Source of the DNA: an uncultured Gemmatimonadota bacterium
GTDB lineage: Bacteria > JAAXHH01
Assembly (NCBI GenBank): GCA_964655785.1
Contig: CAZZNP010000003.1
Coordinates: 30,486 to 89,066 of the forward strand
DNA: 58,581 nt
Direction: 5' to 3'
The translations under genes and the position numbers were made by a program. Below the pieces are notes generated by a model, which worked only from the letters and a program-made list of their open reading frames with translations, did not search any database and was not told where the DNA came from. Positions 10,083-54,663 of the stretch are shown here, in pieces. How positions within the stretch are numbered: position 1 is the first letter of the stretch; each line of letters starts with the position of its first letter.

Positions 10083-10086
10083 CTCC

Positions 10087-27846: not shown

Positions 27847-27897
27847 ATAACCTGCCATGAGCGATAGCCTGCCATGAGCGATAGCCCACCATGAGCG
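27847..27897. repeat. tandem repeat, 17 bp x3
   Basis: ataacctgccatgagcg atagcctgccatgagcg atagcccaccatgagcg. The third copy carries the hydantoinase-A ATG (27891). Confidence 0.9.
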
Positions 27898-29933: not shown

Positions 29934-31609
29934 AGACCGATCCTATCACCCTGGAATTGATGCGTAACCGTTGGACGGGCATCGCGGAAGAAATGTGCGC
30001 CGCCCTGATACGCACCAGTTACTCCACCAATATCAAGGACCGCCGGGACTGTTCCGCGGCCATCGTGCAGCCCACGGGAGAGATCCTGGCGCAGGCGGAA
30101 TCGGGCGTCCCCCTTCACTTGGGCGTCATGCCCGGCGTGGTGAAGTCCATTCTGGAAGCCTATCCTGTGTCGTCCATGCGGCCCGGGGACGTCTACATCA
30201 CGAACCTGCCCTATCCGGAAGGACCGGGTCATCTGCCGGATGTTTCCCTGGTTTCCGCCATTTACCATGAAGACCTGCCGGTCGCGCTTGCGGCGTCCAC
30301 CGCCCATCACGTGGACATGGGCGGGTTCGCGCCTGGCAGCATGCCCTTCGGCGTGACCGAGATTTACCAGGAAGGACTCCAGATCCCACCGCTGCCCATT
30401 TTCAAGGGGGGAAGGCTCGACGAGGAGCTCTACAAGCTGATCAACCAGAACGTGCGGACGCAGTACGAAGTGCGGGGCGACCTCATGGCGCAGTTCGCCA
30501 GCGCCCAGATCGGCCAGCAGCGGGTAAGCGAACTCATGTCCCGGGAGTCTCCGGATGAAGTCATGCGATACATGGACGAGATTCAGGACTACGCGGAACG
30601 CCGGATGCGGGCGGGCATAAGCACGCTGCCTGACGGGGAGTATACTTTCGAAGACTACCTGGACGACGACGGCGTTACCGACGAGCCGGTGAGAATCATG
30701 GTCACCCTGACCATCTCGGGGGACGAACTGCGCGCGGATTTCTCCGGTTGCAGCGACCAGGTCCTGGGTCCCCTGAACGCCCGGCTGCCGGCGGCCCATT
30801 CCTGCATAAGCTATGTGTGCAAGGCCGTGATCGATCCGGACCTGCCGGCCTGCGCCGGGGCGTACAGGCCCCTGGACATCTTCGCGCCCGAGGGCTCCAT
30901 CCTGCAGGCCACCTACCCGGCAGCCATCGGCAATGCGAACATCCTGACGGACCAGCGGGTCGTGGACGTGCTCATGGGCGCGCTGTACCAGGCCACCCCG
31001 GACCGGGTGTGCGCCGCCTGCAGCGGGGAAATGAACCTGGTCAACATCGGCGGAATCGATCCCGCCACTGGCGATTACTACAACTACGTGGAGACCTACG
31101 CGGGCGGGCAGGGCGCCATGTTCGACCTCGACGGAGAAGACGGCGTGCACACCCACCTCACCAATACGCGGAACGCGCCGGTCGAAATCATGGAACGGAC
31201 CTACCCGCTGCGTGTGGAGCGTTACGGCCTGATCCCGGACACCGAGGGGCCGGGACGCCAGCGCGGCGGCTGCGGGATGATGCGGGAACTGAAATGCCTG
31301 GGCGAACGGACCATCATCACGCTGGGCTCCGATCGCAGGAAATTCACGCCGTGGGGCCTCGAAGGGGGCGGAAACGCGACAGGCGCCCACTGTTACGTCG
31401 TCGACACCGATGGGTGCGAAAAGGAGATCCCGACCAAGACCCACACCGAGCTACTGAGAAACGAAGTCCTTAGGATCGAGACGCCCGGCGGCGGCGGTTG
31501 GGGAGTCCCGGAGGAGCGGGATGGGGAGAAAGTTGAAGAGGATGTCCGGAACGAACTCGTTAGTCCGGAAAGGGCGGGCGAACACTACGGTTTGGCTCAG
31601 GGCCGGTAA
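29930..31609 (+). CDS. hydantoinase B/oxoprolinase family (HyuB-like) subunit
   Basis: ATG 29930 overlaps the hyuA-like stop (ATGA). The N-terminus MKTDPITLELMRNRWTGIAEEM is family-typical. The upstream part of track ORF 28892.. is out-of-frame overlap with the A subunit. Confidence 0.9.
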   Translation: MKTDPITLELMRNRWTGIAEEMCAALIRTSYSTNIKDRRDCSAAIVQPTGEILAQAESGVPLHLGVMPGVVKSILEAYPVSSMRPGDVYITNLPYPEGPGHLPDVSLVSAIYHEDLPVALAASTAHHVDMGGFAPGSMPFGVTEIYQEGLQIPPLPIFKGGRLDEELYKLINQNVRTQYEVRGDLMAQFASAQIGQQRVSELMSRESPDEVMRYMDEIQDYAERRMRAGISTLPDGEYTFEDYLDDDGVTDEPVRIMVTLTISGDELRADFSGCSDQVLGPLNARLPAAHSCISYVCKAVIDPDLPACAGAYRPLDIFAPEGSILQATYPAAIGNANILTDQRVVDVLMGALYQATPDRVCAACSGEMNLVNIGGIDPATGDYYNYVETYAGGQGAMFDLDGEDGVHTHLTNTRNAPVEIMERTYPLRVERYGLIPDTEGPGRQRGGCGMMRELKCLGERTIITLGSDRRKFTPWGLEGGGNATGAHCYVVDTDGCEKEIPTKTHTELLRNEVLRIETPGGGGWGVPEERDGEKVEEDVRNELVSPERAGEHYGLAQGR

Positions 31610-31671: not shown

Positions 31672-33060
31672 ATGAAAAACGGTCGGCATGGCACGAAACC
31701 GAGGCGTATCGCCATTATCGGCGCGGGGGTATCCGGGCTCGGTGCCGCATGGGCGCTGAACCACCATCCCGACCGTTTCGATTTCCGATTGTACGAGGCC
31801 CGGGACCAGTTGGGCGGAAACGCTGTTACGGTCGACATGCCGCAGGCTGACGGCGGTTCCATTCCCTTTGATATATCCGTAACCGCCCTTATCCCTTCGG
31901 TTTATCATCACATCCTGCTGCTGATGCGGCGGTTCGGCATCGAATTGCTCGATACCCGGTTCAACTATAGCGTGAAATACCAGGGGCAGGTATACGCCCA
32001 CGATTTCGACTCCGAAATCAGGCGGCAACTGCAGCCGGAGATCGCCCGCTTTCAACGGCTGCTGAAACGTCTCCACCGGTTCGGCCGGCTCACCCACTCC
32101 CGGTCGAGGCTGGTCAATGCGCTGAATCCCTTCAACTACGTCAGCATGGGTACGTTGCTCAACCTGGGCGGTTTCTCCGGCGACTTCAGGTACAAGATCC
32201 TGAAACCCATGTTCGTCAATTTCCTGATGGCGACGAACGTCTTCGACATGCCGGCGGCGCTTTTCGCGCGGTACCTGGAGTTCTTCGACATCGAATCCGC
32301 GACGCCCATGCAGACCTGGGACCAGGGTACACGCCGAATCTATGAGCACCTGTCGTCAAGATTCCGGGACAGGATCTGCCTCGACAGGCCCGTTCGAAAA
32401 GTTTACCGCCGGTCTACCGGTGTCACGGTCTTGGACGCGGACGGCGTCGAGGAGACCTTTGACGAGGTGATCTTCGCGTGCAATGCGAACCAGACACTCA
32501 TGATGCTCGACCGGCCCACGTTCCTGGAGCGGTACATTCTGTCGTCGGTACGATACGAGAGCGAGCTCCACAATCACACGGTCGTGCATTCGGACGCCTC
32601 CGTCCTGCCGGACGACGAGGCGAAGCCTTTGGAGACGCGGAGTAACTTTATCGAGCAGTACGGCGCCAGGCCGGACAACTACGAGATCACCTACATCATG
32701 CATAACCAGCAGCCATGGGCCCATCGGTCCGACAAGCCCTGCCTGGTGACCTACAACCCGGTCAGTCCGATCGATGAACGGAAGATCGTCCAGAAGTGCT
32801 GGTTCCAGCACATCGTCCACGACGTGCGCCACGTCGCATATCTCGTTCAGTTGTTCCGATTCATCCAGGGCAAGCGGCGGACCTGGCACTGCGGCGCCCA
32901 TACCCTGGTGAACAGCCAGGAAACCTGCTTCGTCACCGGTCTCGCCGCCGCCCGGCAAATCGGCGCGGATTATCCCTTCGACGATCCCGAGGCCAGGCGG
33001 ATGTTCAATTACTACGGGAGGATTCTGCATGGCTGGCGGTTCAGGAAGGCGGAAGGGTGA
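31672..33060 (+). CDS. NAD/FAD-binding oxidoreductase (amine-oxidase-like, COG2907-type)
   Basis: 462 aa with RIAIIGAGVSGLGAAWAL (GxGxxG) and YEARDQLGGN. Confidence 0.75.
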   Translation: MKNGRHGTKPRRIAIIGAGVSGLGAAWALNHHPDRFDFRLYEARDQLGGNAVTVDMPQADGGSIPFDISVTALIPSVYHHILLLMRRFGIELLDTRFNYSVKYQGQVYAHDFDSEIRRQLQPEIARFQRLLKRLHRFGRLTHSRSRLVNALNPFNYVSMGTLLNLGGFSGDFRYKILKPMFVNFLMATNVFDMPAALFARYLEFFDIESATPMQTWDQGTRRIYEHLSSRFRDRICLDRPVRKVYRRSTGVTVLDADGVEETFDEVIFACNANQTLMMLDRPTFLERYILSSVRYESELHNHTVVHSDASVLPDDEAKPLETRSNFIEQYGARPDNYEITYIMHNQQPWAHRSDKPCLVTYNPVSPIDERKIVQKCWFQHIVHDVRHVAYLVQLFRFIQGKRRTWHCGAHTLVNSQETCFVTGLAAARQIGADYPFDDPEARRMFNYYGRILHGWRFRKAEG

Positions 33061-33206: not shown

Positions 33207-33319
33207 ACTTACAGCGAGGGTTGCTATAGATTCATCTGAACCGGCGACCCATCCATACCCGGGCGAACACCCTGGCAACGCGGTGGGTCATTAGAGGATT
33301 GAAATTGAACAAATCCGAT

Positions 33320-34381
33320 ATGATCGCAACGCCGGCGGCCGACGCGGATGTCCCGCGCCCCGGCAGTCAAGCCATGGACGGCCTCCCTCCATTTCCGGAA
33401 GGCTGGTACCTGGTAACCACCCGCAATACGCTGCTGAGGTAAAAGCTGATCGAGAAGACGTGGATGGGTGAGGATATCGTCGCCTGGCGCGACGATGAGG
33501 GCCGGGGCTGCGTGGCCGACGCCGTCTGTCCGCACCTGGGTTCCGACCTGGGACCAAAAGTCGGCGGCAAGGTATGCGACGGCCGCCTGATCTGCCCGTT
33601 CCACGGGTTCGAGTTCGATGCGACCGGTCAGTGCGTCGCGACGCCGAACGCGCCGGCGCCGAAAGCCGCCAGACTAACCGTGTACGAAACGCGGGAGATC
33701 TCCGGCATGGTCTTCGCCTGGCACGGGATCGGCGGACGGTCCGCCCACTGGCGCCTGCCGGACGACCCGCCTACCGGCACGGAGTGGGGCGACTTGGGAT
33801 ACCGGACCCTTCGGTTCCGCAGCCATCCCCAGGAGACCGCGGAGAACTCGGTGGACATCGGCCACTTGCGTTACGTGCACGGTTACGACAACGTAAACAC
33901 GGTCGGATCCGTCACGGTGGAAGGCGCCTACCTTAGAAGTTGCTTCGACTTCAGGCGCGTACGAAGGGTCCTGGGTATAAAGGACCTGGTCTACGAAGTT
34001 TCGGCCGTCACGCACATCCAAGGACTGGGGTATTCCTACGTGGAAATCCACGAGAAGACCATCGATATGCACGCCAGGCTCTGGGTCCTGCCTACCCCGG
34101 TCGACGGCGAGTACATCGATCTCGTGCTGGCAAGCCAGTTGCGGGAGATCCGAAAGCCCCGGCGGTTCTTCTCGGACCTGGGCTTCCTGCCGTCGAAGTT
34201 GCGCTGGAGACTGATGAACCAGATCCTGCTTGCACAGCAGAAAAGGGACGTGCTCCAGGACGTGGTGATCTGGGAGCGGAAACGGTTCAGAACGCCGCCA
34301 CGGCTGTGTAAGGCCGATGGCCCCATCGGCCTGTACCGGCGCTATTGCCGGCAGTTCTATCCCGAATCAACCGTGGCTTGA
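33320..34381 (+). pseudogene. Rieske [2Fe-2S] non-heme-iron oxygenase (KshA/Neverland-like) with in-frame TAA at 33440-33442
   Basis: The track ORF starts at 33464, but the same frame upstream reads M(33374)DGLPPFPEGWYLVTTRNTLLR-TAA-KLIEKTWMGEDIVAWRDDEG. That is the normal first strands of a Rieske domain. The Rieske ligands CPHLG...CPFHG and the mononuclear-iron motif ENSVDIGHLRYVH are intact. Confidence 0.65.
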
Positions 34382-34454: not shown

Positions 34455-35438
34455 CTATCCGCCATCCTCGAGCTGCACCAGTGCGTCCAGTACGTCCTGA
34501 TGGATAAATTCTTCGTAAGCATCCCGCACCGGTAGTTTGGCAGCCTTAGAAAGCAACGCCCCGGCCCGCTCCCGGCCGCTGTCTCGATCGAGTTCAGGAA
34601 GCCTGAGCGCATACTCCAGCAGCACGACCTTCGAGTCCGGTGCGAGTTCCAGGGCCCGTTCGTAATGGGCGATGGCGTTCTCGCGGTTCGCCTTGTACAT
34701 GAACCGGGCAATCCGTCCGGCGCGGGCAATGTCGGCGTGCCAGCCCCCGAAGGCCATGTGCGCCTCGGCGAAGTCGGGATAGACGGCAAGCGTGGCCTCG
34801 AGCAGACTGCGGGTCCTGCCCGCCAGACCTCGGCGAAGCGCCGTCAGCGTACCGACAGTCTGGGCATACCGGCCGACGGCGTGCGCGGACTGGTAATACG
34901 CTTCGTAATTGGTCGAATCGGCGCTCACCGCCTCCTCTCCGAAATTCATCGCCCGTTCCAGGAACCTCTTCCTTTCATCCCCGGTCGCCACATGATGGCC
35001 GTACACTGCGAGCGATTGCGCTGCCAGGGCGTAGCCTTCTGAGGTCCCTAGGGCTTCCGCGAGATCCGCCGCCTCGAGAAAGCGGCCTTCCACGAATGCG
35101 GCTGTTGCCTCATCGATCGGCTGCGCGTCGATACCGCTTGAGTCGGCTGCGACGCTTGAGTCGGCTGCGACGGTTGAGTCGGCTGCGACGGTTGAGTCGG
35201 CTGCGACGGTTGAGTCGGCTGCGACGGCTGTACCGGTTGGTTCCGCCTGGACAGCCGGGTCGGCTGCGACGGCTGTACCGGTTGGGTCCGCCTGGCCAGC
35301 CGGGTCGGCTGCGACGGCCGGGTCGGCTGCGACGGCCGGGTCGGCTGCGACGGCCGGGTCGGTCCGGCCGTCCAAGCTGACCGCGAGGAGCACGATTGGT
35401 CCAAATGCCGCGATGAGGAAAAAGCGGGTAACGGTCAT
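34455..35438 (-). CDS. secreted/anchored helical-repeat (TPR-like) protein with repeat-encoded low-complexity N-terminus
   Basis: 327 aa with an N-terminal hydrophobic segment (FFLIAAFGPIVLLAV). This is followed by (AADPAV)n, (AADSTV)n and a ~220-aa all-helical region (NAIAHYERALELAPDS). It starts 18 bp downstream of the P450 fusion gene on the same strand. Confidence 0.6.
   Translation of the reverse strand: MTVTRFFLIAAFGPIVLLAVSLDGRTDPAVAADPAVAADPAVAADPAGQADPTGTAVAADPAVQAEPTGTAVAADSTVAADSTVAADSTVAADSSVAADSSGIDAQPIDEATAAFVEGRFLEAADLAEALGTSEGYALAAQSLAVYGHHVATGDERKRFLERAMNFGEEAVSADSTNYEAYYQSAHAVGRYAQTVGTLTALRRGLAGRTRSLLEATLAVYPDFAEAHMAFGGWHADIARAGRIARFMYKANRENAIAHYERALELAPDSKVVLLEYALRLPELDRDSGRERAGALLSKAAKLPVRDAYEEFIHQDVLDALVQLEDGG
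35137..35370. repeat. nested in-frame intragenic tandem repeats (18 bp x5, 45 bp x2, 18 bp x3)
   Basis: The core gtcggctgcgac recurs 9 times. It encodes AADSTV / AADPAV / AVAADPAVQAEPTGT repeats of the TPR-like protein. Confidence 0.9.
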
Positions 35439-35456: not shown

Positions 35457-37490
35457 CTAGGAGGCGGGCAATTCGCGCAGTTGCTCGGCGACGCGAAACT
35501 TCAGCTTCTTGCTCGGTTTCATGGAAGGAAGCGGACCGAACTTGAGCTTCCAGTCTTCCGGATACACCTCGAGCCTGAAATAACGCGCGACCATCAGCAC
35601 ATTCACCGCAAGCTGCAATTCCATCCACCGGTTGCCCAAGCACGTGTGGGTACCCAGTCCGTAAGGCGTGTACGCGCCGGGTGTGCGATGCTCGTTGCGT
35701 GGGGGGAGATAGCGGTCGATATCGAACTTATGGGGTTCCGGAAAATACTCTTCAAAGTAGTGTGGAGCCGTTTGGGCGATATGGACCTTCGTCCCCACCG
35801 GCAATTCATAGCCCTCGACCATACAGGTATTCATCACGTGACGCATGGACATGGCGATGATGGGGTGGATTCGCAGACTCTCCATGATGAAGCGGTGGGT
35901 CACGTCGATTTTCGCGGGGGTAAGGTCCTCCCCGGCCGGATCGCCGTTCTCGAACAGAGCGTCCGCTTCTTCGCGAATCCTATCGCAGAGATCGGGATGC
36001 GACGCCAGGGCGTACACCGTGAAGCTGAAGGCGTCACCCAGGTACACGCTGGCGATCAGCGCCGCGGACAGGGCGAAACGCAGGTTCGACTCGGGCACGA
36101 ACTGCGGATCGCTCGCGTGCAGGCTCAGCCAGTCGTCGGCGAGGTTCCGGGGACAGCCGCCCCGCTGAGCGGGCGTGTGAACGCTCTGAATCCGCTGCAG
36201 CAACGTGTCGACGGCTTTCGCGCGGCGCTTCATGCCCGGCGTATTCAGCATGAACTTGGGCAGAACCCGGACGATGTGCGTATTGAGCGCCCGTTCCTTG
36301 TAGGACATGAGATCGTCGATGATGTCCTGCGTGTCGACGCTGACCGAAAGCGGCGAAATCCGGCTATTGATCATCAGGTGGCACATCCGTCTCGCCTGAA
36401 AGACCTCCCCGACCTTCCAATGCGACATGAATCCGCGGGCGTGCTTGTACAGCTGATCCAGCTGGGCGGAAAGTCTCGCTCGCGAATAAGCCGGCGACAT
36501 GGCCTTGCGCAGCCTGAAATGATCGCCGCCGTCTAGGGAAGGCAGTACCCCGGATGCGCCGTAGACTTTTTCGAAGTCGGCGAAATAGTCCCTGGCTCTC
36601 AAGTACATGCGGCCGTGCCGGTGCGTCCATCGATTCACGTCCGTCCCGGCGATGAAGTACAGGCGCTTGCCGAAGGGCCGGCGGATCGCGAATACCGGGC
36701 CGTATTCCCAGGTCAGCTCGGCAAAGAACGCGGTGATGTTCCCGGTCCGGGTATTAGGATTTAACAGCAGCTTGCCGAGCGAAATTGTCGGGATTTCCTT
36801 GGTCAGGTGGGACCGCCGAAGCAATGGCCCTGCAATGTTCTGCTCGACGGCTGCGGCAATGGAGCGGCCGATCAGGTCCATCTGGCAGATGGCCTTGATG
36901 CGTTCCTCCGCTTCTTCATCGAGTTGGAACATGAAGCGCAGGACGTCGCAGGTGTTGATGAGGCAGATTACGATGACGTCTCTCGGATCGGGGATCTCGT
37001 TCATGAAGATCGCCCGGCTGATCCAAGTTCTGATGAACTGACTCGCCGTGCCCGGTTCGGCGTCGTCGTACAACTCCGACTCCCAGTCGGTCCGGGCCAG
37101 CGTCCAGAACTCGCCTTCGTGATGTTCCAGGATCTTCACTTCGACCAGGCGGTCCAGCACCGAATCGATGGCAGACTCCGCGCGCGGAACGAGCCTTTCG
37201 ATCCAGAACCGCGTGTTATGCTGGCTCGAATCGCTTGCGATTTCTTCCAGAATGGGGTCGATGGTGGGATTGCCCGTAGGCGTCTGGTCCAGGAGGAACA
37301 GGTATTCCACGTCCGTGTCGATGCGGGACCTGAGTGAAAGCTCCGCCAGCACGGCGCTGACCACGGCGCAGTTCAGGTTCCAGCCAGGCACCTGGTGGAA
37401 GTAGCCCGTCTCCTCGTTGAGGAGCGCCAAGATGAGCTCCTGGGTCAACGTAAGGGGTTGGGTTTTCGCACCTGGTGTAGTCACTGACAT
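35457..37490 (-). CDS. GPP34 (GOLPH3-like) domain - cytochrome P450 fusion protein
   Basis: 677 aa from ATG 37490. It has an N-terminal GPP34 pattern (ELILALLNEETGYF...AVVSAVLAELSLRSRID). The C-terminal P450 has ExxR (ESLR) and a heme Cys loop (YGLGTHTCLG). Confidence 0.8.
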   Translation of the reverse strand: MSVTTPGAKTQPLTLTQELILALLNEETGYFHQVPGWNLNCAVVSAVLAELSLRSRIDTDVEYLFLLDQTPTGNPTIDPILEEIASDSSQHNTRFWIERLVPRAESAIDSVLDRLVEVKILEHHEGEFWTLARTDWESELYDDAEPGTASQFIRTWISRAIFMNEIPDPRDVIVICLINTCDVLRFMFQLDEEAEERIKAICQMDLIGRSIAAAVEQNIAGPLLRRSHLTKEIPTISLGKLLLNPNTRTGNITAFFAELTWEYGPVFAIRRPFGKRLYFIAGTDVNRWTHRHGRMYLRARDYFADFEKVYGASGVLPSLDGGDHFRLRKAMSPAYSRARLSAQLDQLYKHARGFMSHWKVGEVFQARRMCHLMINSRISPLSVSVDTQDIIDDLMSYKERALNTHIVRVLPKFMLNTPGMKRRAKAVDTLLQRIQSVHTPAQRGGCPRNLADDWLSLHASDPQFVPESNLRFALSAALIASVYLGDAFSFTVYALASHPDLCDRIREEADALFENGDPAGEDLTPAKIDVTHRFIMESLRIHPIIAMSMRHVMNTCMVEGYELPVGTKVHIAQTAPHYFEEYFPEPHKFDIDRYLPPRNEHRTPGAYTPYGLGTHTCLGNRWMELQLAVNVLMVARYFRLEVYPEDWKLKFGPLPSMKPSKKLKFRVAEQLRELPAS

Positions 37491-38044
37491 ATATTTTGGA
37501 CTCCAGGTACCAACTCCTTCATGAAGACCAATAGCACGTATGGTACCAATTGATAAATATATGTAAACGACCGGGGCGTACAACGTTTAAATTGCCTGTC
37601 GGGTATGGCTTTCAGGTGAAAAGCGGGCGTCTCCGACCGGGGTTACCATGGGCGTATCAGGTTCGCAACCAGTCGATACATAATTCGTCGAATAAAACTT
37701 TTCCTATTTCATTATATAAGTAACTCGCAATTATGGACTTGACTGTACTTAACATACGTTGCATATTGATAATAAACAAGGGGTGCGTCGCCAAGTCCAC
37801 TGTTTCATATTTCATTTTTACCAGTTTTTATAGGACAGATATTGTACACGCATCTAAGCGTACATGCGTGCCAGTTCGTGCGCCTGTGGACGGTACCGGT
37901 TTCAACCTGCTGTCTGTCCGCTTTTTGCGTGTAACTCACCACCCACGGCAACAAACACATTTCCCGAGGCAATGCAAGTGTGAGCGCAGCGCCTACATTG
38001 CCGTCGGTTTCACGCGGTACCTACTTTTTCGTGAGAACTAGGCC

Positions 38045-40042
38045 ATGAAGATGCGATTTACCGAAGAACTGCTCCTTTTGCTTCACAGTGAAGAATCGGG
38101 TTATTTCGTTCCCATACCAGAATGGCAAATGTCCTGTGCTATAGCAGGCAGCGTGCTTATGGAGCTTGCTCTGGAAGAGCGCATCGACTCCGACCTGGAA
38201 TCATTGGTTCTGACCGATGCGACTCCGACGGGCGATGAGTTGCTTGATCCTACGCTCCAGGAGATAGTGCAGGGAGATAAAGTTCAGACTCCGCAGTACT
38301 GGGTTGAACGCATCGCTCGAAGGGCGGATGACATCAGCGATGCCGCTATAGACCGCCTGGTGAAAGCGGGTATTTTCCAGTCTGATGAAGGCGGATTCTG
38401 GACCCTGACCACCAAGGTAACCCGGACAGGTCGATATCCCCTGGTAGATGGAAGGGCGGGTGAAGAAATAAAAAGCCGGATCATGCGCACCCTGCTAGAC
38501 GACGAGATTCCACATCCTCGCGACATAGCCATAATTGGCCTCGTCAACTACTGTGGCGGGTTCAGGGCCATGATGGAGCCCGAAGAGTACGAGTGGGCAA
38601 AAAACCGCATTGAGCTCTTAAGCAGGATGGACCTGATCGGACGGGCTATCGGCCCGGCGGTACGCAGCTCCTACCGGCCGCCCGAGAGCATGCGCGCCGG
38701 CAGACGCCGTCCAATGCCTACCGTGAGTCTTTGGGAGTTGATTTCCTCCAAAACGGTCAGGGCGGGGAACTTCCCCAAGTTCTTTGCCGAGAAAAACAAT
38801 GAGCTTGGTGCTGTTTTTCGACTCAAAGTACCCGGACGGAAGCTCGTTGTAATATCTGGGGTCGAAATGAACAAGTGGGTCGGCAAGAAGGGCCGATTAT
38901 ACTTGCGGACTCGCGACTACCTGGAAGGATTTCAAACAGAGTGGGGTACGGCGAGGTCCGTTGCGAGCATGGACGGAGCGGACCACTTCCGCATGCGTAG
39001 GGCCGTACGGGCCGGTAATTCCAGACAGGTTGTCAGCGATCGGCTCCACGAACTGATTGCGGTCATAAGGCGCTCATTCCGCGAATGGGGAATCGGTAAC
39101 ACCATGCCGGGTGAAATGACCTGCCAGCGGTTCATAGGAAGACAGATCGCCGAGCTAAGCGTAAGTACGGATGTCGCCACCGATGTCCTTGATGACCTTC
39201 TCACGTTCGAGTACCGTGCACTGATGGTCCATGTACACAAGCTCCTGCCCAAATTCATGATACACACGCCTAGGATGAACCGGTATCGAAACCGCGTTCT
39301 GGACTTGTATGCACAGATCCACGCGTCTCACACGCCGGGGCAAAGAGAAGGAAAGCGGCGAGACCTGGTCGATGACTTGATGGAACTGCATCAATCCGAT
39401 CCGCAGTTTCTCCCGGAGACCGACCTGGGATTCGCTTTCATTGCACCGATCATCGCTGGACACTACACCGGAAGCGCGATGGGTTTTGCCATTTATGAAC
39501 TGTTGAAAAACCCACACATCCGGGAACAGATCGCCGCTGAAGCGGATGCGCTGTTCGAAGGCGGCGATCCGACCGCTGAGGATCTGACCCCTGCGGCTAT
39601 CGACGCGACCCACCGGTTCATCATGGAGGTCCTGCGGCTGCATCCGGTCATCCCGGTGCATTTGCGCACGGCCATGAATTCCTTTGAAGTCGAAGGCATT
39701 GAAGTACCGGCCTACAGCGAGGTCCTGGTAGCTTTCCCGGCAACGCATTACATGGAAAGGTACTTCGCGGAGCCGGAAAAGTTCGACATCGACCGGTATT
39801 CCGAGCCCCGAAATGAACACCGGCAGACCGGCGCATACAATCCCTTCGGCGTGGGTACCCACATGTGCGGCGGCTCACGCTGGACCGAATTGCAGATGGC
39901 CGCCAACGTACTTCTAGTCGCACGCCACCTGGAATTGGAACTGGTACCCAGAGATTACGAACTGAAGTTGAGTTCCCTTCCTAAAATCTGTGCCAACAAG
40001 GCGTTCAAGTTCCAGGTCCTGACACACAGGCATCCCATTTAG
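38045..40042 (+). CDS. GPP34 (GOLPH3-like) domain - cytochrome P450 fusion protein (paralogue)
   Basis: 665 aa with EELLLLLHSEESGYF...AIAGSVLMELALEERID. The P450 has an I-helix IIAGHYTGS, ExxR (EVLR) and a heme loop (FGVGTHMCGG). Codon usage is visibly AT-richer than in flanking genes. Confidence 0.8.
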   Translation: MKMRFTEELLLLLHSEESGYFVPIPEWQMSCAIAGSVLMELALEERIDSDLESLVLTDATPTGDELLDPTLQEIVQGDKVQTPQYWVERIARRADDISDAAIDRLVKAGIFQSDEGGFWTLTTKVTRTGRYPLVDGRAGEEIKSRIMRTLLDDEIPHPRDIAIIGLVNYCGGFRAMMEPEEYEWAKNRIELLSRMDLIGRAIGPAVRSSYRPPESMRAGRRRPMPTVSLWELISSKTVRAGNFPKFFAEKNNELGAVFRLKVPGRKLVVISGVEMNKWVGKKGRLYLRTRDYLEGFQTEWGTARSVASMDGADHFRMRRAVRAGNSRQVVSDRLHELIAVIRRSFREWGIGNTMPGEMTCQRFIGRQIAELSVSTDVATDVLDDLLTFEYRALMVHVHKLLPKFMIHTPRMNRYRNRVLDLYAQIHASHTPGQREGKRRDLVDDLMELHQSDPQFLPETDLGFAFIAPIIAGHYTGSAMGFAIYELLKNPHIREQIAAEADALFEGGDPTAEDLTPAAIDATHRFIMEVLRLHPVIPVHLRTAMNSFEVEGIEVPAYSEVLVAFPATHYMERYFAEPEKFDIDRYSEPRNEHRQTGAYNPFGVGTHMCGGSRWTELQMAANVLLVARHLELELVPRDYELKLSSLPKICANKAFKFQVLTHRHPI

Positions 40043-43000
40043 ACGGATGCGGATGCCAGGTTAAGAAACCGCTGGTGAATCGAGAACAGCGCGGGAACGA
40101 CGACCATGAGGATCGCTGTAGTAAACAGAATACCGAATCCCAGTGACGCGGCGAAGGGGATCAGGAACTGGGCCTGAATGGCGGTTTCCAGAATGAGCGG
40201 TGTGAATCCGAGGAATGTCGTAAGGGAAGTGAGCATGATCGGACGAAATCGACCCTTGGCGCCTTCGATGATCGCGGTCCGTGCCGGGTTGCCTTCACGC
40301 AGTTTTTGATCGATGAAGTCGATCATGACCAGGGAATCGTTCACTACTACACCACTCAGGCCAAAGATGCCCATGAAGGATACCGCGCTCAAGGCCAGCC
40401 CCAGCACCCAGTGACCGAGGATCACCCCGATGAACCCGAAGGGGATGATGGCCATGATGATGAACGGTTTGGTGTAGGAGCGGAGGGGGATGGCAAGCAG
40501 CGTGAAGATCATGATCAGGGCAACCGCGTACCCGCGGTACAGGGCGTCCAGAGAATCGAGCTGCTGCTGTTGTTCGCCTCCGAACGTGTAGGTCAGGTCC
40601 GGGTATATGTCGGTCAGGTCCGCCAGGATCGAGTTCTCCAGGATGTCGTTGGCTTCGTTGCCGGTAATCACCGCGGGATCCACGTCCGCGGTGACCGTGA
40701 CGATTCGCTGGCTATCCTTTCGCTTTATGGCCGGCGGCGACACACCTGAATTAAGCGTTGCCGCACGGGTCACCGGGACCTCTGCTCCGCCGGGCGTACG
40801 GAGCAGATACCTCTCGATATCCGTGATAGTGTTCCGCTCATCAGCGGGGAGGCGGACGTAGACGCGAACCTCTTCGCGGCCACGCTGCACCCGAACCGCC
40901 TCGGCACCGAAAAACGCCGCGCGCGCCTGGCCGGCCAGCGCATCAAGTGTGAGACCCAGGGTCCGCGCTTCAGGCCGCAGTTCCATCTGTATTTCCAGTA
41001 TGCCCGGGGTATGGTCCGAACGCACGTCGTAAACGCCTCCAACTTCGCGCAGGCCGTCGACCACGGAGTTGGCGATCTGGACGAGCCGATCGGGATCCGG
41101 ATGAGACATTTCGGCCTCGACAGGATTTCCCAGGTCCAGGACCTCGCCGCTGAAGGTAATGCCGCGCACATAGGGCAGCACCCCTACCTCCTCGCGCCAT
41201 GCCTGGACGAAGTCGATCGTGGAAATCTCTCTTTGCTGCGCTCCGAGCAGCTTGAATTCGATGGTGGCGATATTGGCTTGCGGATTAAGGGTCGGTGCAG
41301 GGTTCAACCCTCCACCAGGTACCCGCGGCCGCTGTCCGACCGTCACGATGACGCCGGACAACAGCGGAGGCGCATAATCGGGACGGTCAATCGAGAGGCG
41401 TTCAATTACCCGGTACCCGGCCTGCTCCAGTTCCCTGGCGACCTCAAATGTCCTCGGCGCGGTCGTGCCATCGGGCATGTCCAGCGTGACCGTGGCGTAA
41501 TCCCCTTCTACTTCTGCGGCCAACGTGGTTGGGACGATACCCGCGGGAATCAATGAGATGCTTAACACGAGCATGCCCACGGCCGCCGCGATCGTCACCA
41601 CCGGCTGGTCCGTTGCGAACCGAAGCGCCCGGTCCAGGGGACCCTGTACGAACCGGGCCATTTGGGTGTTGACACCACCCTGGACCCGTGAGATCATCCG
41701 GTCGAGCACGTTTTTCGGCTTCCATTCCGGGCCGTGCAGATGGGACAGGTGGTTGGGCAGGATCAGCAACGATTCCACCAAAGAAACCAGCAGGATGGCG
41801 ATCATTATGATCGGCAACGCCCGCCAGACCTCGCCTACGCCGCCGGGGATGAACAGCAGCGGTATGAAAGCCACCACCGAGGTGAGGACCGCAAAGGTCA
41901 TCGGCACTTTTATCCGTCGTACGCCTCGGATTGCGGCCTGGATTCCCGGGGTCCCCCGATTGCGTTCGTATTGAATATGTTCGGATACGACTATGGCGTC
42001 ATCCGCGACGATGCCGATGGCAAGGACAAAGGAAAACAGGCTCTGGGCGTTGATTGCCACGTCGAGAATCAGCATGGCCGCCAGGGCGCCGATACCCGAT
42101 ACGGCAAGGCCGACGGCGACCCAGAATGCAAGCCTTATTTCGAGAAACAGACTGAGCGCGATCAGTACCAGAAGCAGGCCCAGTATACCGTTCTTCAATA
42201 GAATATCGGTGCGTTCCTCGTAGTCCTGTGATTCATCATTCCATATGGTGATGCCCAGGCCGTCCGGGAGGGACGGGATCACCTCGTTCTCCAGGTGCTC
42301 CCGGACGTTCGCGGAGACTTCCAGCACGTGCTCGCCGTCAGCCCGGTAGACTTCGACGAACGCCGCCGGCTGGTTCTGGTGCCGGACGATCAGGTCCGAT
42401 TCCCGGAAGCCGTCGTTCACCGCTGCGATATCTCCGAGGCGTACGACCGTACCGTCACTGCCGCTGAGCAGGACGATCTCTTCGAAATCCTCCTGGTCGT
42501 AATTCTGGCCCAGGGTCCGGATGCGCACCTGGGATTCCCGCGTATTGATACTGCCGGAAGACAGCTCCAGGGAACTCCGGCGGATCGTACCGGCTATGTC
42601 GTCGAGGGTAAGCCCGAGGGCGCTCAGCCGATGCAGCGGAACTTCGATGGAGATCTCGTAGTCCCGCACTCCGCTTACTTCGACCTGGGACACGGACGGC
42701 AACGTCTTCAGCTCATCCTCTACCTGGTAGGCCAGTTCCTTCAGCGAGCGTTCGGATACGTCACCGTAGACGACGAGCCTCATCATGCTCTGGCGGTTGG
42801 TCATCTCCCTGAACTGGGGCCGTTCGGCGCCGCCTGGAAAAGACTGAATGCGGTTGACCGCGGACTCGATGTCATTCAGCGCTTGGGCCATGTCCGTGCC
42901 GGATTCCATCTGTACCCGGATGGACGCGATACCCGGCGCCGCCACGGACTTGACCGCCTTCACGTCATCCAGCCCGCTGACCTGGTTCTCGATTTTGACG

Positions 43001-43224
43001 ACGATCGACTCCTCCACTTCCTCCGGCGTGGCACCGGGATAGGCCATCGAGACCTCGACGTGGTAGAAGGGGACGGTCGGCCACGCTTCACGCTCCAGGC
43101 CGGTAAGCGACACGAGCCCGAAGGCGACGATTGCCAACATAAGCAGGTTGGCGGCCACGCTGTTGCCCGCCATGTAAGCGAGCGGGCCGGCAGGTTCCGT
43201 GCGGTTGCCGTTGTCTGCAGTCAT
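40039..43224 (-). CDS. RND efflux transporter, inner-membrane permease (AcrB-like)
   Basis: 1061 aa with 12-TM/two-large-loop organisation and a typical N-terminus (NSVAANLLMLAIVAFGLVSL...EVSMAYPGATPEEVE). The start overlaps the adaptor gene stop. Confidence 0.9.
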   Translation of the reverse strand: MTADNGNRTEPAGPLAYMAGNSVAANLLMLAIVAFGLVSLTGLEREAWPTVPFYHVEVSMAYPGATPEEVEESIVVKIENQVSGLDDVKAVKSVAAPGIASIRVQMESGTDMAQALNDIESAVNRIQSFPGGAERPQFREMTNRQSMMRLVVYGDVSERSLKELAYQVEDELKTLPSVSQVEVSGVRDYEISIEVPLHRLSALGLTLDDIAGTIRRSSLELSSGSINTRESQVRIRTLGQNYDQEDFEEIVLLSGSDGTVVRLGDIAAVNDGFRESDLIVRHQNQPAAFVEVYRADGEHVLEVSANVREHLENEVIPSLPDGLGITIWNDESQDYEERTDILLKNGILGLLLVLIALSLFLEIRLAFWVAVGLAVSGIGALAAMLILDVAINAQSLFSFVLAIGIVADDAIVVSEHIQYERNRGTPGIQAAIRGVRRIKVPMTFAVLTSVVAFIPLLFIPGGVGEVWRALPIIMIAILLVSLVESLLILPNHLSHLHGPEWKPKNVLDRMISRVQGGVNTQMARFVQGPLDRALRFATDQPVVTIAAAVGMLVLSISLIPAGIVPTTLAAEVEGDYATVTLDMPDGTTAPRTFEVARELEQAGYRVIERLSIDRPDYAPPLLSGVIVTVGQRPRVPGGGLNPAPTLNPQANIATIEFKLLGAQQREISTIDFVQAWREEVGVLPYVRGITFSGEVLDLGNPVEAEMSHPDPDRLVQIANSVVDGLREVGGVYDVRSDHTPGILEIQMELRPEARTLGLTLDALAGQARAAFFGAEAVRVQRGREEVRVYVRLPADERNTITDIERYLLRTPGGAEVPVTRAATLNSGVSPPAIKRKDSQRIVTVTADVDPAVITGNEANDILENSILADLTDIYPDLTYTFGGEQQQQLDSLDALYRGYAVALIMIFTLLAIPLRSYTKPFIIMAIIPFGFIGVILGHWVLGLALSAVSFMGIFGLSGVVVNDSLVMIDFIDQKLREGNPARTAIIEGAKGRFRPIMLTSLTTFLGFTPLILETAIQAQFLIPFAASLGFGILFTTAILMVVVPALFSIHQRFLNLASASV

Positions 43225-44492
43225 GGGGTCAGTTCCGCTTCCGACTGGACGCGCATGCCGTCCGTGGCAAACTGGATTCCGCCGGTGACGACGACCTGGC
43301 CGCTTTCGAGTGTCCCGGTCGCAGTACCCGTCACATAGGCCTTGTCGCCGCTGCGCTGCAGCACTTGGACCTGGACGATCCCGACCGTGCCGCCATCCTG
43401 TACGGTCCAGACCTCGTTTCCGGTTCGCAGCGCCGCTCGCGGCACCAGGAAATAGTCGTCCATTTCACGGCCCTCGATTTCCACCTCCACAAACTTGCCT
43501 ACCAACAGGGGGGAACTAACGCCGATCGGTACCGTGCCGTCTGTCGGCCGTCCTGCTCGAAGCGGGTCCGGCACACGGACGATTACGTCGATGGTACGCG
43601 TCTGACGGTCGAGGTGCGCCTCACCCCGGTCCACGTAGCCGTTCCAGACATAGGATCCCTCGCCGAAACGGCCGAAGACGCGCGCCGTCACGTGTCGGAT
43701 ACCGTCACCGGCCATAAGCGACCACAATCGCGGAATCAGGGCGGCGTCGGAATCGGACAGCGGCACAGAAATCTCCACGGCATCCGCCGAGTGAACCCGC
43801 GCGACGGGCTGGCCAGGCGCCACGATCCGGCCCACGTCCACGGATTCATTCTGTACGAAACCGTCGAAGGGTGCGGTTATCCGGGTCCGGGACAGGGCAA
43901 GCCTGGCGTCTGCAACCCTGGCCTCGTCGCGGGCCAACGCGGCCTGGGCCGCTTCAAGTTGCGGAGTTCTCAGCGCGAGTGGATTCGCGTCGCCGAGTGT
44001 AGACGCATTGGTAGGTGTAGACGCATCGTCGGACGAGGACTCGCTGCTACGCAAAGTGGTATAAAGTTCGTGTTGCGCGCGAGCTATCGAAGCCTGTTCC
44101 TTTTCTTTCAGCAACGCAACCCGGCTGGCCGCGAGATTGGCCTCAGCCTCCTGCACCAGGTACTGATAATCGACTTCTTCGATGCGGAAGAGCGTATCGC
44201 CCGCCGCGATACGGCCGCCGCTCAGGAATCCCGGGTCGACCCACACGACCCGGCCACCCACCTGCGGAACGATGTCGACCTCGGCGCTCGGCCGTACGGT
44301 GCCCGATCCGAATACGGGTATGGGTCCGGACCCGGCGGTGACCACGCCGGTCTGCACAAAGGGTATCTGGGGCGGCTGTTCCGTGCGCGTCGGTTCAGGG
44401 GCCAGTGAAATCAACAGGGCGGCGATCGCCACGGAAACGCCGAGAATGCCGCCGGCAACGAGAAAGCTGGTTAAACGCGACATGGAATTCAC
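43221..44492 (-). CDS. RND efflux periplasmic adaptor (membrane fusion protein)
   Basis: 423 aa with an N-terminal anchor, a coiled-coil hairpin (AEANLAASRVALLKE...LEAAQAALARDEARVADARLAL) and beta-barrel segments. It is translationally coupled on both sides. Confidence 0.85.
   Translation of the reverse strand: MNSMSRLTSFLVAGGILGVSVAIAALLISLAPEPTRTEQPPQIPFVQTGVVTAGSGPIPVFGSGTVRPSAEVDIVPQVGGRVVWVDPGFLSGGRIAAGDTLFRIEEVDYQYLVQEAEANLAASRVALLKEKEQASIARAQHELYTTLRSSESSSDDASTPTNASTLGDANPLALRTPQLEAAQAALARDEARVADARLALSRTRITAPFDGFVQNESVDVGRIVAPGQPVARVHSADAVEISVPLSDSDAALIPRLWSLMAGDGIRHVTARVFGRFGEGSYVWNGYVDRGEAHLDRQTRTIDVIVRVPDPLRAGRPTDGTVPIGVSSPLLVGKFVEVEIEGREMDDYFLVPRAALRTGNEVWTVQDGGTVGIVQVQVLQRSGDKAYVTGTATGTLESGQVVVTGGIQFATDGMRVQSEAELTP
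43997..44032. repeat. in-frame intragenic tandem duplication, 18 bp x2
   Basis: gtgtagacgcattggtag gtgtagacgcatcgtcgg. It encodes DASTPT/NASTLG in the RND adaptor. Confidence 0.8.
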
Positions 44493-46030
44493 TCCGTTGG
44501 GGGACTGGAGGGAGGACGCCGGTCCTGTTGCCGCAACCGGAGTGCCTCCAGGTCGGCGGCGGTCCAGGTGCCGCCCAGTGCGCGGTGCAGGGCCAGGCGG
44601 GCGTAACCCAGATCCCGCGCCGCCGCCGAGAGAACCGACCGCGCAGCGAGACGGGATTGCTCCGCCGACAGGAAAGCTTCGTATTCACCCACGCCCGACA
44701 GGTATTTTTGTTCCTGCAACAGGGATTCGGCCCGGGTTTCTTCGGAAAGGGACTCAAGCAGCGCATGACGCGCGCGGCTGGCCTCCAGCGCCAGGAGGGC
44801 GGTCTCTACCTCGTTGACCGCGGTGACCACGGAACGTCCATAAGCGGCGGCCGCCTCGTTCAACCTGGCCTCCGCCAGCGCTATGTTCTTGCGAAGGCGC
44901 GAGCCCTGGAAAACGGGGCCGAGCAGGTTCGCCGTGAGGTTCCGGAACCACTGATCCGGATCGAACCATTCGCTTGAATCCGTAGTCTGCAATCCGATCG
45001 CGCCCTGCAGCGACAGCCTCGGCAGCAGGTCCGCCCGGCGCGCGCCCACAGAGAACCGCGCCGCCTCTACGCGCTGCATGGCCGCGAGCACGTCGGGCCG
45101 CTGCATCATGAGATCTGCTGGGATGCCGGCGGGAACGGGATCAGACAACGCGGAGGGAGAAGGCGCGTCGCAGAGCAGGTGCGCGAGGTCGGCCCGGAAG
45201 CCGCCCATGAGTATCCACAGCCTTCCCTCGGCGTCCGCGCGCAAGGCTTCGATTAGCGGAAGTTCGGCCTGGGCTTCACGCAGACTCCGCCGCGCCGCGT
45301 GGAGGCCGGCCAGGCCGGCCAGCCCGCTTTCATACCTCGATTCGGCCAGAGATTTCAGTTGTGCCAGGACGTCCGCGATCTCACCGGCGTGCCGCTGCTG
45401 CACGCGCAGGTTTGCGATTTCCAGGTAGGTGCGGACCGTCTCGGCCAACACCCCCATTTGCGCGCTGAGGTAGTCCGCCTCCGTAGCCACCAGTTCGGCT
45501 CCCGCGGCGCGCGCGTCGTTGCGGTTGCGGCCCCAGAAATCGAGCTCATAGGCGAATTCCACGCTCAGGGTATAGGTCGTCAAACCGAGCCGGTCGGGGA
45601 TATCCACGCCGGCCGCGCTCAGCGACTCCGGGTCCAGACCGACTTCTTCCAGTTGCGCGCCGATGCCGGCATTCGTCGGACCGTCGAATTCGTTTACGCT
45701 CACGGACGGCTGCAGAAGCGGAAACACCGTCGACCCGGCGATTCCGTGACGCATCCTGGCCTGCTGCACACGGGCAACCGCCCCGGCCAGGTCGAAATTG
45801 GAGGACAGCACCTCTGCGATTACTCGGTCGAGGACCGGATCTTCGTAGGATTTCCACCACTCCAGCGGCTGGTAGGCACCGGAATCCACCCCGGTGGTAA
45901 ACGCTGAGGGAGGCTCCGGCACGGATTCGAGTACAGCGAGATTGCGGCTCGTAGCCAGGGAACAGGCCGTCAGGAACAGGCACGCGATCAGCGAAATGAA
46001 CCGTCCCATGTTTGAGATGAACCGTCCCAT
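44489..46030 (-). CDS. efflux outer-membrane factor lipoprotein (TolC/NodT family)
   Basis: 513 aa with a lipobox (FLTAC) and duplicated coiled-coil OEP repeats. The start codon is duplicated by a 21-bp tandem repeat, so the alternative start is 46009. Confidence 0.85.
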   Translation of the reverse strand: MGRFISNMGRFISLIACLFLTACSLATSRNLAVLESVPEPPSAFTTGVDSGAYQPLEWWKSYEDPVLDRVIAEVLSSNFDLAGAVARVQQARMRHGIAGSTVFPLLQPSVSVNEFDGPTNAGIGAQLEEVGLDPESLSAAGVDIPDRLGLTTYTLSVEFAYELDFWGRNRNDARAAGAELVATEADYLSAQMGVLAETVRTYLEIANLRVQQRHAGEIADVLAQLKSLAESRYESGLAGLAGLHAARRSLREAQAELPLIEALRADAEGRLWILMGGFRADLAHLLCDAPSPSALSDPVPAGIPADLMMQRPDVLAAMQRVEAARFSVGARRADLLPRLSLQGAIGLQTTDSSEWFDPDQWFRNLTANLLGPVFQGSRLRKNIALAEARLNEAAAAYGRSVVTAVNEVETALLALEASRARHALLESLSEETRAESLLQEQKYLSGVGEYEAFLSAEQSRLAARSVLSAAARDLGYARLALHRALGGTWTAADLEALRLRQQDRRPPSSPPTE

Positions 46031-50301: not shown

Positions 50302-51498
50302 ATGAAAATCACCCATGTCCGAATCACACCGGTCAAGACGCCCGGCCCGGCGCCGGAGCCCTACGTCATCCATTCCATCAATCCGATTTACCGGTACCCC
50401 GACCTGAAGTACGACGCGCCGCCTGAGACCAGGCCGCGACAGCCGGACGGACCAGGCTCGCTCGTCATCGAAATCGAAACGGACGAGGGCGTGACCGGGG
50501 TGACGCAGAAGGGCTACGGCCTTCCCGGCGTGTATTCCGTCCTGGAAAACGTTCTGGCGCCCCTGCTGATCGGTGAGGACCCCATGCGGACGGACTGGCT
50601 GTGGGAGAAGATGCACCGGTACTGTATATCCCAGGCACGGGAAGGCATCGCCAGCGCCGCCATCAGCGCCATCGACACGGCCCTCTGGGACCTTAAGGGC
50701 CGATACCTGAACCAGCCGGTATACAACCTGCTCGGCGGGAAGACGAAAGACAGACTGCGCGCGTACGCAAGCCGGCTGTACGTGTACGCCAGCGACCGGG
50801 GCGATCCGGACCTGGGCCTCCTGAGGGAAGAGGCGTCGATGTACGTCGAACAGGGCTTTACGGCGGTAAAACAACGGTTCGGATTCAGCCAGGACGATGG
50901 TGTGGAAGGCATGAAGAAGAACCGGAAGGTGGTCGAGACGCTTCGTGAAACCATCGGGCCCGACATCGAACAAATGGTGGACTGCTGCCGGTCCTTCACG
51001 GCGGATTACGCCATCAAGATGATCCGCATGGTGGAGGAATTCGACCTCGCCTGGGTGGAGGAACCGGTGCATCCCCACGACTGGCCCGGTTACGTGAAGG
51101 TGCGGCAGTCCGCGTCCATGCCCATATCGGGTGGAGAGAACGAGTTCGGCAAGCACGCCTTCGCCCGCTGGCTCGAGATGGGATGCGCCGACATCTGGCA
51201 GCCCGACACGGATCGCTGCGCGGGTATCACGGAAGTGCAGAAAATCGTCCATCTGGCCGCGGCGAACGATATCCCGGTCATCGCGCACGGGGGGTGGATG
51301 GCCAACTTCCACCTCGCCATGGCTAACATGAACGTGCCCATGATCGAGTACTTCCCGGACCACAACCTGGATCGGGAAACACGGATTCTCACCGGCCAGC
51401 CTCGGCCCGTGGACGGATACATCACGCTTTCCGACGCCCCGGGCCTGGGCCTGGAACTGGACCGGGACGCCCTGAAGCGATTCACATGGGACGGTTGA
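50302..51498 (+). CDS. enolase-superfamily enzyme (mandelate racemase subgroup, sugar-acid dehydratase-like)
   Basis: 398 aa with FTAVKQRFG, QMVDCCRSF, WVEEPV and ISGGENE, which fit the metal and general-base positions of acid-sugar dehydratases. Confidence 0.85.
   Translation: MKITHVRITPVKTPGPAPEPYVIHSINPIYRYPDLKYDAPPETRPRQPDGPGSLVIEIETDEGVTGVTQKGYGLPGVYSVLENVLAPLLIGEDPMRTDWLWEKMHRYCISQAREGIASAAISAIDTALWDLKGRYLNQPVYNLLGGKTKDRLRAYASRLYVYASDRGDPDLGLLREEASMYVEQGFTAVKQRFGFSQDDGVEGMKKNRKVVETLRETIGPDIEQMVDCCRSFTADYAIKMIRMVEEFDLAWVEEPVHPHDWPGYVKVRQSASMPISGGENEFGKHAFARWLEMGCADIWQPDTDRCAGITEVQKIVHLAAANDIPVIAHGGWMANFHLAMANMNVPMIEYFPDHNLDRETRILTGQPRPVDGYITLSDAPGLGLELDRDALKRFTWDG

Positions 51499-53232: not shown

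Positions 53233-54663
<1,431 letters not shown>

Follow-up and report, generated by a model that had tools for sequence, protein, structure and literature searches.

Proteins that join a GPP34 domain (PF05719), i.e. the Pfam family of eukaryotic GOLPH3 and Vps74, to a cytochrome P450 domain (PF00067) have been described from sponge symbionts by Ferreira et al. (2025, Microbiome 13:4; PMC11706023), who termed them GPP34_L. They found this plan in 656 of 663 long GPP34 proteins and in most sponge-symbiont phyla, including 92.6% of the sponge Gemmatimonadota genomes, with one to six GPP34 gene copies per genome; it was present in none of the free-living relatives analysed, and GPP34 was strongly enriched in sponge and coral symbionts. 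The authors proposed that GPP34 proteins are secreted effectors which bind phosphatidylinositol 4-phosphate (PI4P, or PtdIns(4)P) and block phagosome maturation; their study holds no biochemistry and does not treat the P450 subtype, the pocket residues, secretion signals or the neighbourhood of the long form. Here, we analysed a 58,581 nt stretch of the genome of an uncultured Gemmatimonadota bacterium (contig CAZZNP010000003.1; hereafter the window), in which two such genes, A and B, lie head to head. These fusions belong to a horizontally mobile gene set that also comprises an efflux pump and enzymes for which the closest characterised proteins have steroid substrates, and we tentatively favour a role of both proteins as membrane-docked P450s in the tailoring and export of sterols or triterpenoids. 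Within the literature searched, neither the genomic context nor the pocket analysis had a precedent.

Both open reading frames (ORFs) lie exactly where an earlier note on this DNA had placed them, with 677 aa and 665 aa, and contain all the peptide strings quoted there, i.e. IPDPRD/IPHPRD, MESLR/MEVLR and YGLGTHTCLG/FGVGTHMCGG. The domain plan read from these strings is borne out by Pfam, in which both domains score far above the curated cut-offs: GPP34 (cut-off 29.1 bits) with E 5.5e-27 and 95.6 bits in A (profile positions 1-199 of 201) and E 2.9e-33 and 116.1 bits in B (positions 3-199 of 201), and P450 (cut-off 22.8 bits) with E 7e-34 and 117.8 bits in A and E 2e-39 and 136 bits in B. By BLASTP, the two proteins align end to end at 44% identity across 642 residues with five gaps, close to the roughly 40% that had been estimated by eye. 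A and B are true GPP34 plus P450 fusions and members of GPP34_L, i.e. single polypeptides with the GPP34 domain N-terminal and the P450 domain C-terminal, with which they also share a length of about 660-690 aa and the host phyla. ATG 38045 is taken as the start of B because orthologue alignments begin at residue 2-3, while a public gene call begins at Met39 (627 aa); for A, a longer version from TTG 37583 is possible, and the orthologues favour ATG 37490. NCBIfam returned for A and B only sub-threshold P450 equivalogs (74-80 bits against cut-offs of 525-800), named pentalenene oxygenase, albaflavenone monooxygenase and ApyO. According to Pfam and a motif scan, neither protein carries a fused flavin or Fe-S electron-transfer domain, GPP34 being the sole extra domain.

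The supposed novelty of the architecture did not hold up. Besides having been published as GPP34_L it is common, with at least 574 relatives among the GTDB species representatives, across many phyla; as to whether this is a common, already characterised P450 family, it is common and described, but it has no biochemically characterised member despite its very wide spread. Both domains are present in every one of the best 120 clusters for B (63-83% identity) and of the best 120 for A (69-89%). A and B each fall into a deep cross-phylum orthologue clade of their own, and at least one further clade is about 44% identical to both; since all of these separate clades consist of two-domain proteins, the fusion predates several duplications, in agreement with the earlier note, which had placed it before the duplication of A and B (at least 120 clusters in each of the two orthologue clades). 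A search with the N-terminal domain alone yielded 1981 representatives at 50% clustering, the best 150 of which comprised 34 full-length fusions, 58 short proteins and 58 of intermediate length, many of these probably being fragments. Other architectures found near GPP34 were STAS-GPP34 (four representatives), a GPP34-patatin phospholipase, tandem GPP34 and a GPP34-GPP34-P450 protein of 872 aa (P0346, P0371, P0372, P0390, P0353, P0242 and P0243).

B is 79% identical to its counterpart in Binatia, 75% to that in Acidobacteriota and 73% to that in Halieaceae (Gammaproteobacteria), whereas ProRS of the window (53233-54660, minus strand) is 92-93% identical to Gemmatimonadota proteins from metagenome-assembled genomes (MAGs), 73-79% to the next tier and only about 63% to those of other phyla, which places the host in Gemmatimonadota. 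From the 73-79% cross-phylum identity of B against about 63% for ProRS we deduce that B was transferred horizontally and kept under strong constraint. The composition of B is atypical as well, with a GC content of 0.555 and a third-position GC content (GC3) of 0.644, compared with a GC3 of 0.789 in A and 0.72-0.82 in the other window genes checked; by composition, B seems to have arrived later than A.

The company kept by the fusions was determined by tblastn of every window ORF against 79 fusion loci with 10-kb flanks. The 79 loci kept all come from MAGs, many of them recognisable by label as sponge MAGs and one being from a coral, and they hold 89 fusion copies, i.e. 52 of the B type, 4 of the A type and 33 of one or more further clades. 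Partner genes, one or more per locus, were present in 71 of the 79 loci. Conservation of the neighbourhood in related MAGs, a check proposed in the earlier note, was thereby found for the three-part resistance-nodulation-division (RND) pump, a KshA-like Rieske oxygenase and a FAD oxidase, which recur across phyla (Table 1) and form an informative flanking context that the note itself had missed. The gene order is shuffled among lineages while the gene set persists, and the cross-phylum identity of 64-75% shows that the RND partners are orthologues, not an arbitrary set of pumps. Among solved structures, the Rieske protein, which has the iron motif D-x2-H-x4-H, is closest to the 3-ketosteroid 9alpha-hydroxylase KshA (E 2.8e-20), and the FAD enzyme shows a full-length match to LkcE (E 1.8e-30).

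De novo ORF clustering of the loci revealed a further partner of about 346 aa in 29 of the 79 loci (33 copies, none in the window). Since all 33 copies carry a Sterol_MT_C domain (PF08498) together with a class I methyltransferase domain, this partner is an enzyme of the sterol C-24 methyltransferase (SMT) type. Three SMT genes stand in tandem in locus L004, and in L026, L006 and L062 the SMT gene is separated from the fusion by 11-85 nt. In the Binatia locus L047 (8895-21407) a KshA-like Rieske gene, a B-type fusion, a FAD oxidase, an SdmB-like protein of the 3beta-HSD/epimerase family, an SdmA-like oxygenase (Rieske plus VanA_C), an SMT and a 1269-aa squalene-epoxidase/oxidosqualene-cyclase (SE/OSC) fusion follow one another within 13 kb; L004 (8931-21696) and L006 are similar, and the Binatia MAG loci hold one to three SMTs.

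Sterol genes in the same hosts are already on record. Sponge-symbiont SMTs methylate sterols (Brown et al. 2023; PMC10070321), and among 537 sponge MAGs of the same phyla, 115 carry horizontally transferred ERG24-CYP51-LSS operons (Kelly et al. 2022; PMC9531527); neither paper mentions GPP34, the present P450 fusion, a KshA-like oxygenase or an RND pump. The gene set described here resembles these published clusters in its hosts and phyla, in its horizontal transfer and in the inclusion of SMTs, and in Binatia the fusion module is contiguous with the SdmB-like and SdmA-like genes, i.e. relatives of the SdmAB C-4 demethylation system, and with SMT and SE/OSC. We nevertheless rejected the identity of the two, as the published clusters are defined by ERG24-CYP51-LSS, sdmAB and SMT, unlike the fusion module. 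The comparison with KshAB is likewise two-sided: the Rieske neighbour has the Rieske and KshA_C domains and the iron motif and is nearest to KshA among solved structures, but no KshB-type reductase lies nearby, further steroid-catabolic genes (KstD, Hsa) were not seen, NCBIfam leaves the protein unnamed and the window copy has a premature stop codon.

We then turn to the N-terminal domain, on which the published effector proposal depends. Modelled alone (pLDDT 85, pTM 0.84), it matched GOLPH3 (TM-scores 0.71 and 0.68) and Vps74 (0.58-0.67) in the Protein Data Bank (PDB) with a Foldseek probability of 1.0, and no other PDB match to the model fell below E = 0.3. The structure comparison suggested in the earlier note thus singles out GOLPH3/Vps74 among solved structures, and the N-domain is predicted to have their fold. 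The phosphoinositide pocket, which the note had also raised, fared differently. In GOLPH3, the PI4P site consists of W81, R90, R171 and R174, and the exchange R90L abolishes binding (PMC13408441). The corresponding columns were located by pairwise phmmer, by hmmsearch with a family profile and by hmmalign with the same profile on a wider set, and all three agree. In place of R90, 240 of 240 fusions have A/V/I/G/T and none a basic residue, as is also the case for 0 of 150 wider relatives, i.e. diverse long and short GPP34 proteins; the R171 column is D/E in 229 of the 240 fusions and basic in 6 of the 150 relatives, and the R174 column is S/N/G/T/I/V in the 240 fusions, none of them basic, and basic in 86 of the 150. 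At the position of W81, the 240 fusions have I/V or P and the 150 relatives V/L/I; an almost invariant Trp of the fusions follows 2-3 residues further on. Three of the four binding residues are replaced (R90, R171 and R174 by A/V, D/E and S/I), and the canonical GOLPH3 pocket is therefore absent from the whole bacterial group.

According to the view of PMC11706023, GPP34 proteins including the P450 fusions would be secreted, bind PI4P on the host phagosome and keep it from maturing, which would save the symbiont from digestion by sponge cells. The enrichment in sponge and coral symbionts, the absence from the free-living relatives analysed there, the true GOLPH3/Vps74 fold and the sponge-MAG names of many of the retrieved relatives, all of them MAGs, would fit such a role. 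However, the pocket columns R90, R171 and R174 are not conserved in the 240 fusions, and neither A nor B has a signal peptide or a transmembrane helix, unlike the neighbouring periplasmic adaptor, outer-membrane and TPR-like proteins; judged from their sequences, A and B are soluble cytoplasmic two-domain proteins. Moreover, the conserved neighbours are cytoplasmic or inner-membrane enzymes, such as the SAM-dependent SMT and the Rieske oxygenase, and an efflux pump, and a heme enzyme which requires a reductase chain would be an improbable secreted lipid binder. The sequence evidence contradicts the idea of a secreted PI4P binder, and we consider an effector role of the fusions very unlikely.

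What is conserved in the GPP34 domain points in another direction. Apart from the fold core, the 240 fusion sequences retain seven basic positions, i.e. R46, R89, R104, K143, R145, R159 and R200, and a hairpin, GGFWTL or GEFWTL, with invariant G116, F118 and L121. This hairpin aligns with the membrane-inserting hairpin of GOLPH3 (residues 190-201) and is modelled as two strands (111-113 and 119-121). The domain shares with GOLPH3/Vps74 the fold, the Pfam family and, by alignment, a beta-hairpin with hydrophobic residues, but it is only 17-20% identical to them, lacks the disordered N-terminal region and is joined to an enzyme. The GPP34-patatin phospholipase fusion among the close relatives suits a membrane-surface module, and a membrane- or lipid-related role of the N-domain is the most plausible idea.

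Alternatively, GPP34 might be a protein-protein module that assembles the P450 with partner enzymes or with its redox partner, or that regulates it. A groove of GOLPH3 recognises the basic tails of client enzymes (PMC13408441), and GPP34 occurs in varied fusions, including STAS, patatin and tandem GPP34 proteins as well as, in some proteins, Rieske and ABC ATPase domains (PMC11706023); stand-alone GPP34_S genes often lie near a separate P450 (PMC11706023). Inside our 79 loci, no stand-alone short GPP34 gene was found, but only frameshift fragments of fusions. A recruiting device would also be useful given that no redox partner is encoded nearby, and the pTM of 0.75 of the full-length model is compatible with a fixed interdomain contact. 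Against such a module, the acidic client-groove residue E159 of GOLPH3 aligns with R/H in the fusions (the remaining groove residues could not be aligned), no protein with a conserved basic tail emerged as a candidate partner, and it is the membrane-inserting hydrophobic hairpin of GOLPH3 that has been retained. We therefore regard this role as unlikely, while placing it above the effector proposal.

The P450 domain is of the E-class, 'eukaryote-like' type. The Cys loop (C608 in B numbering), ExxR (E528 and R531) and the DRY/F motif (R584) are invariant in the 240 sequences, and in the structure model of B (mean pLDDT 87, pTM 0.75) the fold of the domain has TM-scores of 0.75-0.82 to solved P450s. 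In typical monooxygenases, an acid-alcohol pair in the I-helix, A/G-G-x-D/E-T, serves O2 activation. This pair is not present in the fusions: both clades have an invariant Tyr in place of the acid, and at the Thr position 120 of 121 A-clade sequences have Leu and the B clade has Thr (71) or Leu (43). Its loss marks an unusual chemistry but would be compatible with catalysis.

By sequence, the best solved match of the B domain is a Methylococcus-type CYP51 (E 6e-28), mostly in the C-terminal half (mainly residues 185-410 of the domain, 101 bits), and that of the A domain is CYP120A1, followed by CYP184A1 and then, slightly behind, CYP51. With CYP51, including the Methylococcus-type CYP51 (6mi0, 6mcw), the fusions share the E-class, the likeness of the B-clade AGHYTGS to AGHHTSS and an occurrence in sponge-symbiont sterol contexts, but the His-Thr pair of CYP51 is Tyr-Thr/Leu in the fusions, and separate, true CYP51 genes exist in the symbiont sterol operons (Brown et al. 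2023, PMC10070321; Kelly et al. 2022, PMC9531527). Membership in CYP51 was rejected, considering that A prefers CYP120A1, that the fold search shows no preference for CYP51 and that the I-helix reads HYT/L or VYL and not HTS. Another point of comparison is P450 BM3 (CYP102A1), whose heme domain is the closest by fold (TM about 0.78-0.81) and, as in the CYP51-ferredoxin fusion, is covalently joined to an accessory domain. In A and B, unlike in fusions of this kind, the accessory domain is N-terminal, has no flavin/Fe-S motif and shows a membrane- or lipid-associated fold. The sequence alone does not name the substrate.

No redox partner of these P450s was found nearby. A motif scan of all window ORFs of at least 50 aa and Pfam searches on about 40 of them agree with the earlier note in finding no ferredoxin or reductase partner in the window, the Rieske cluster being the only match of the Fe-S motif scan, and by motif and Pfam neither a ferredoxin nor a flavodoxin-like protein nor an FNR/KshB-type reductase was encoded in the window or recurrent in the 79 loci.

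The reading that we favour, if with slightly less than even confidence, is that A and B are membrane-docked cytoplasmic P450s in a horizontally spread module for sterol or triterpenoid tailoring and export. The GPP34 domain would dock the P450 on the inner membrane, on its cytoplasmic side, and the alignment and the model suggest that it may do so via the hydrophobic beta-hairpin and the conserved basic residues and not via a PI4P pocket. Eukaryotic microsomal P450s carry an N-terminal membrane anchor; GPP34 could stand in for it and give access to a membrane-embedded substrate, which might be a sterol or a related polycyclic triterpenoid, either made by the symbiont or derived from the sponge. 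A and B would catalyse different steps, because their I-helices differ (A-G-H-Y-T/L-G-S in the B clade and A-S-V-Y-L-G-D in the A clade), with electrons probably coming from redox partners encoded elsewhere in the genome, and the co-inherited RND pump would carry the modified lipid to the outer membrane or export it from the cell.

Several points weigh against this reading. Its functional support is guilt by association throughout, and membrane docking by the hairpin is drawn from an alignment and a predicted model only. The P450 does not single out sterols, since the best sequence match of A is CYP120A1, and in the fold search BM3, CYP184A1, CYP3A4 and CYP97 are about equal. SMT genes are absent from the 58-kb window and from 50 of the 79 loci, and these loci, being the best-scoring relatives, are biased towards the B clade. 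The Rieske gene of the window has an in-frame TAA (33440-33442) where the orthologue in the nearest relative, locus L029, has GAG (Glu) and is intact with 390 aa; this is either a real nonsense mutation, i.e. a pseudogene, or an assembly or sequencing error. Finally, the pump is of the generic HAE1 multidrug type, which would suit detoxification equally well.

Detoxification and efflux is indeed the main rival to the sterol reading. The P450s and the Rieske protein would then oxidise toxic hydrophobic metabolites of the sponge or of microbes (terpenoids, alkaloids) and the RND pump would expel the products, the link to sterols being incidental. In its favour, no neighbour is as constant as the pump with its RND, adaptor and outer-membrane parts (61 of 79 loci), the coupling of a P450 to efflux is typical of xenobiotic handling, BM3 and CYP3A4, to which the P450 fold is nearest, are broad-substrate enzymes, and the module copy in the window is without an SMT. 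However, this explanation leaves aside the SMTs in 29 of the 79 loci, with their close spacing to the fusion and the tandem of three, the Binatia contiguity with SdmAB-like genes and SE/OSC, and the KshA-like nature of the Rieske protein; in addition, a cross-phylum conservation of 65-80% suggests one defined substrate and not a broad specificity. We therefore consider it somewhat unlikely, albeit a stronger contender than the effector and the protein-module proposals.

Returning to the sterol reading, it is tempting to speculate that the fusions are the signature enzymes of an undescribed, horizontally transferred sponge-symbiont island for sterol tailoring and export, in which the GOLPH3-fold domain is a membrane- or sterol-handling module without a PI4P pocket; in this extended form the proposal is possible, if doubtful. 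Such an island would comprise one to three membrane-docked P450s, a KshA-like Rieske protein, SMTs, an LkcE-like oxidase and a dedicated RND pump. If true, symbionts would make or remodel part of the unusual 'sponge' sterols, which touches the debate on the 24-isopropylcholestane biomarker, and PI4P binding by GOLPH3 would have been added in eukaryotes to an older fold whose role is to dock enzymes on lipid surfaces. The question bears on the persistence of bacteria in sponges as well as on the makers of those sponge sterols which are used as the oldest animal biomarkers.

Table 1. Features of the GPP34-P450 locus and its surroundings (window coordinates; counts refer to the 79 fusion loci)
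Feature	Position (nt)	Strand	Remarks
FAD-dependent amine-oxidase-family enzyme	31672..33060	plus	17/79 loci, ~80% identity
KshA-like Rieske non-heme-iron oxygenase (Rieske + KshA_C)	33305..34381	plus	47/79 loci, within 10 kb
Exported TPR-like protein, N-terminal hydrophobic segment	34455..35438	minus	here and in L029 only
Gene A, GPP34-P450 fusion	35457..37490	minus	677 aa, ATG 37490
Gene A, P450 domain	35505-36743	minus	residues 250-662, Pfam
Gene A, Cys-ligand loop YGLGTHTCLG	35634-35663	minus	
Gene A, ExxR (MESLR)	35871-35885	minus	
Gene A, I-helix IASVYLGD	36033-36056	minus	
Gene A, GPP34 domain	36843-37448	minus	residues 15-216, Pfam
Divergent intergenic region	37491..38044		554 nt, AT-rich, GC 0.46
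Promoter-like site	37567-37540	minus	falls in L029-conserved block
Promoter-like site	37739-37767	plus	falls in L029-conserved block
Gene B, GPP34-P450 fusion	38045..40042	plus	665 aa, ATG 38045
Gene B, GPP34 domain	38063-38665	plus	residues 7-207, Pfam
Gene B, P450 domain	38726-39961	plus	residues 228-639, Pfam
Gene B, I-helix IAGHYTGS	39452-39475	plus	
Gene B, ExxR (MEVLR)	39623-39637	plus	
Gene B, Cys-ligand loop FGVGTHMCGG	39845-39874	plus	
RND inner-membrane permease (AcrB/HAE1 type)	40039..43224	minus	orthologues in 61/79 loci, 64-75% identity
RND periplasmic adaptor (MFP)	43221..44492	minus	42/79 loci
NodT-type outer-membrane efflux lipoprotein (OEP; lipobox LTAC)	44489..46030	minus	38/79 loci

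Outside this gene set, the window is ordinary chromosome, with genes for ProRS, citrate synthase, ApaG, AmpD and sugar-acid and hydantoin metabolism, and tRNA and Rfam scans of the window returned nothing. Two adjacent PhyH-family dioxygenases (3678-5406), a hydantoinase A/B pair (27891-31609) and a second FAD amine-oxidase-like gene (51486-53168), all on the plus strand, do not recur with the fusion in other genomes. The TPR-like gene sits between the Rieske gene and gene A; perfect 18-nt tandem repeats at 35138-35362 encode its ADPAVA/ADSTVA units, and its product probably stands outside the conserved module. On the other side of the pair, the stop codons of the convergent B and RND permease genes overlap (TAG 40040-40042 on the plus strand and TAA 40039-40041 on the minus strand), leaving no space for a terminator between these genes.

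The head-to-head pairing, which the earlier note had put in its heading, is not a conserved feature. Among the 79 loci only L029 (OZ241838.1) shares it, with orthologues of the pair at 92% and 87% identity, and the layout is a local arrangement. In L029, the region of the B orthologue (10001-11997) shows an ORF that ends at 11545 (514 aa) while the similarity runs on to 11997, i.e. there is a frameshift or a stop. Of the spacer between A and B, about 330 nt beside A match L029 with a conservation as high as that of coding sequence, and about 225 nt beside B (roughly 37810-38035) are present in the window and missing in L029. A promoter and terminator scan gave counts not above those in shuffled sequence, and the two promoter-like sites in Table 1 are listed only for their location in L029-conserved blocks. 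The -10 regions of both sites are overlapped by a 21-nt direct repeat (ACGTATGGTACCAATTGATAA / ACATACGTTGCATATTGATAA; copies at 37536 and 37752), which might act as an operator common to both.

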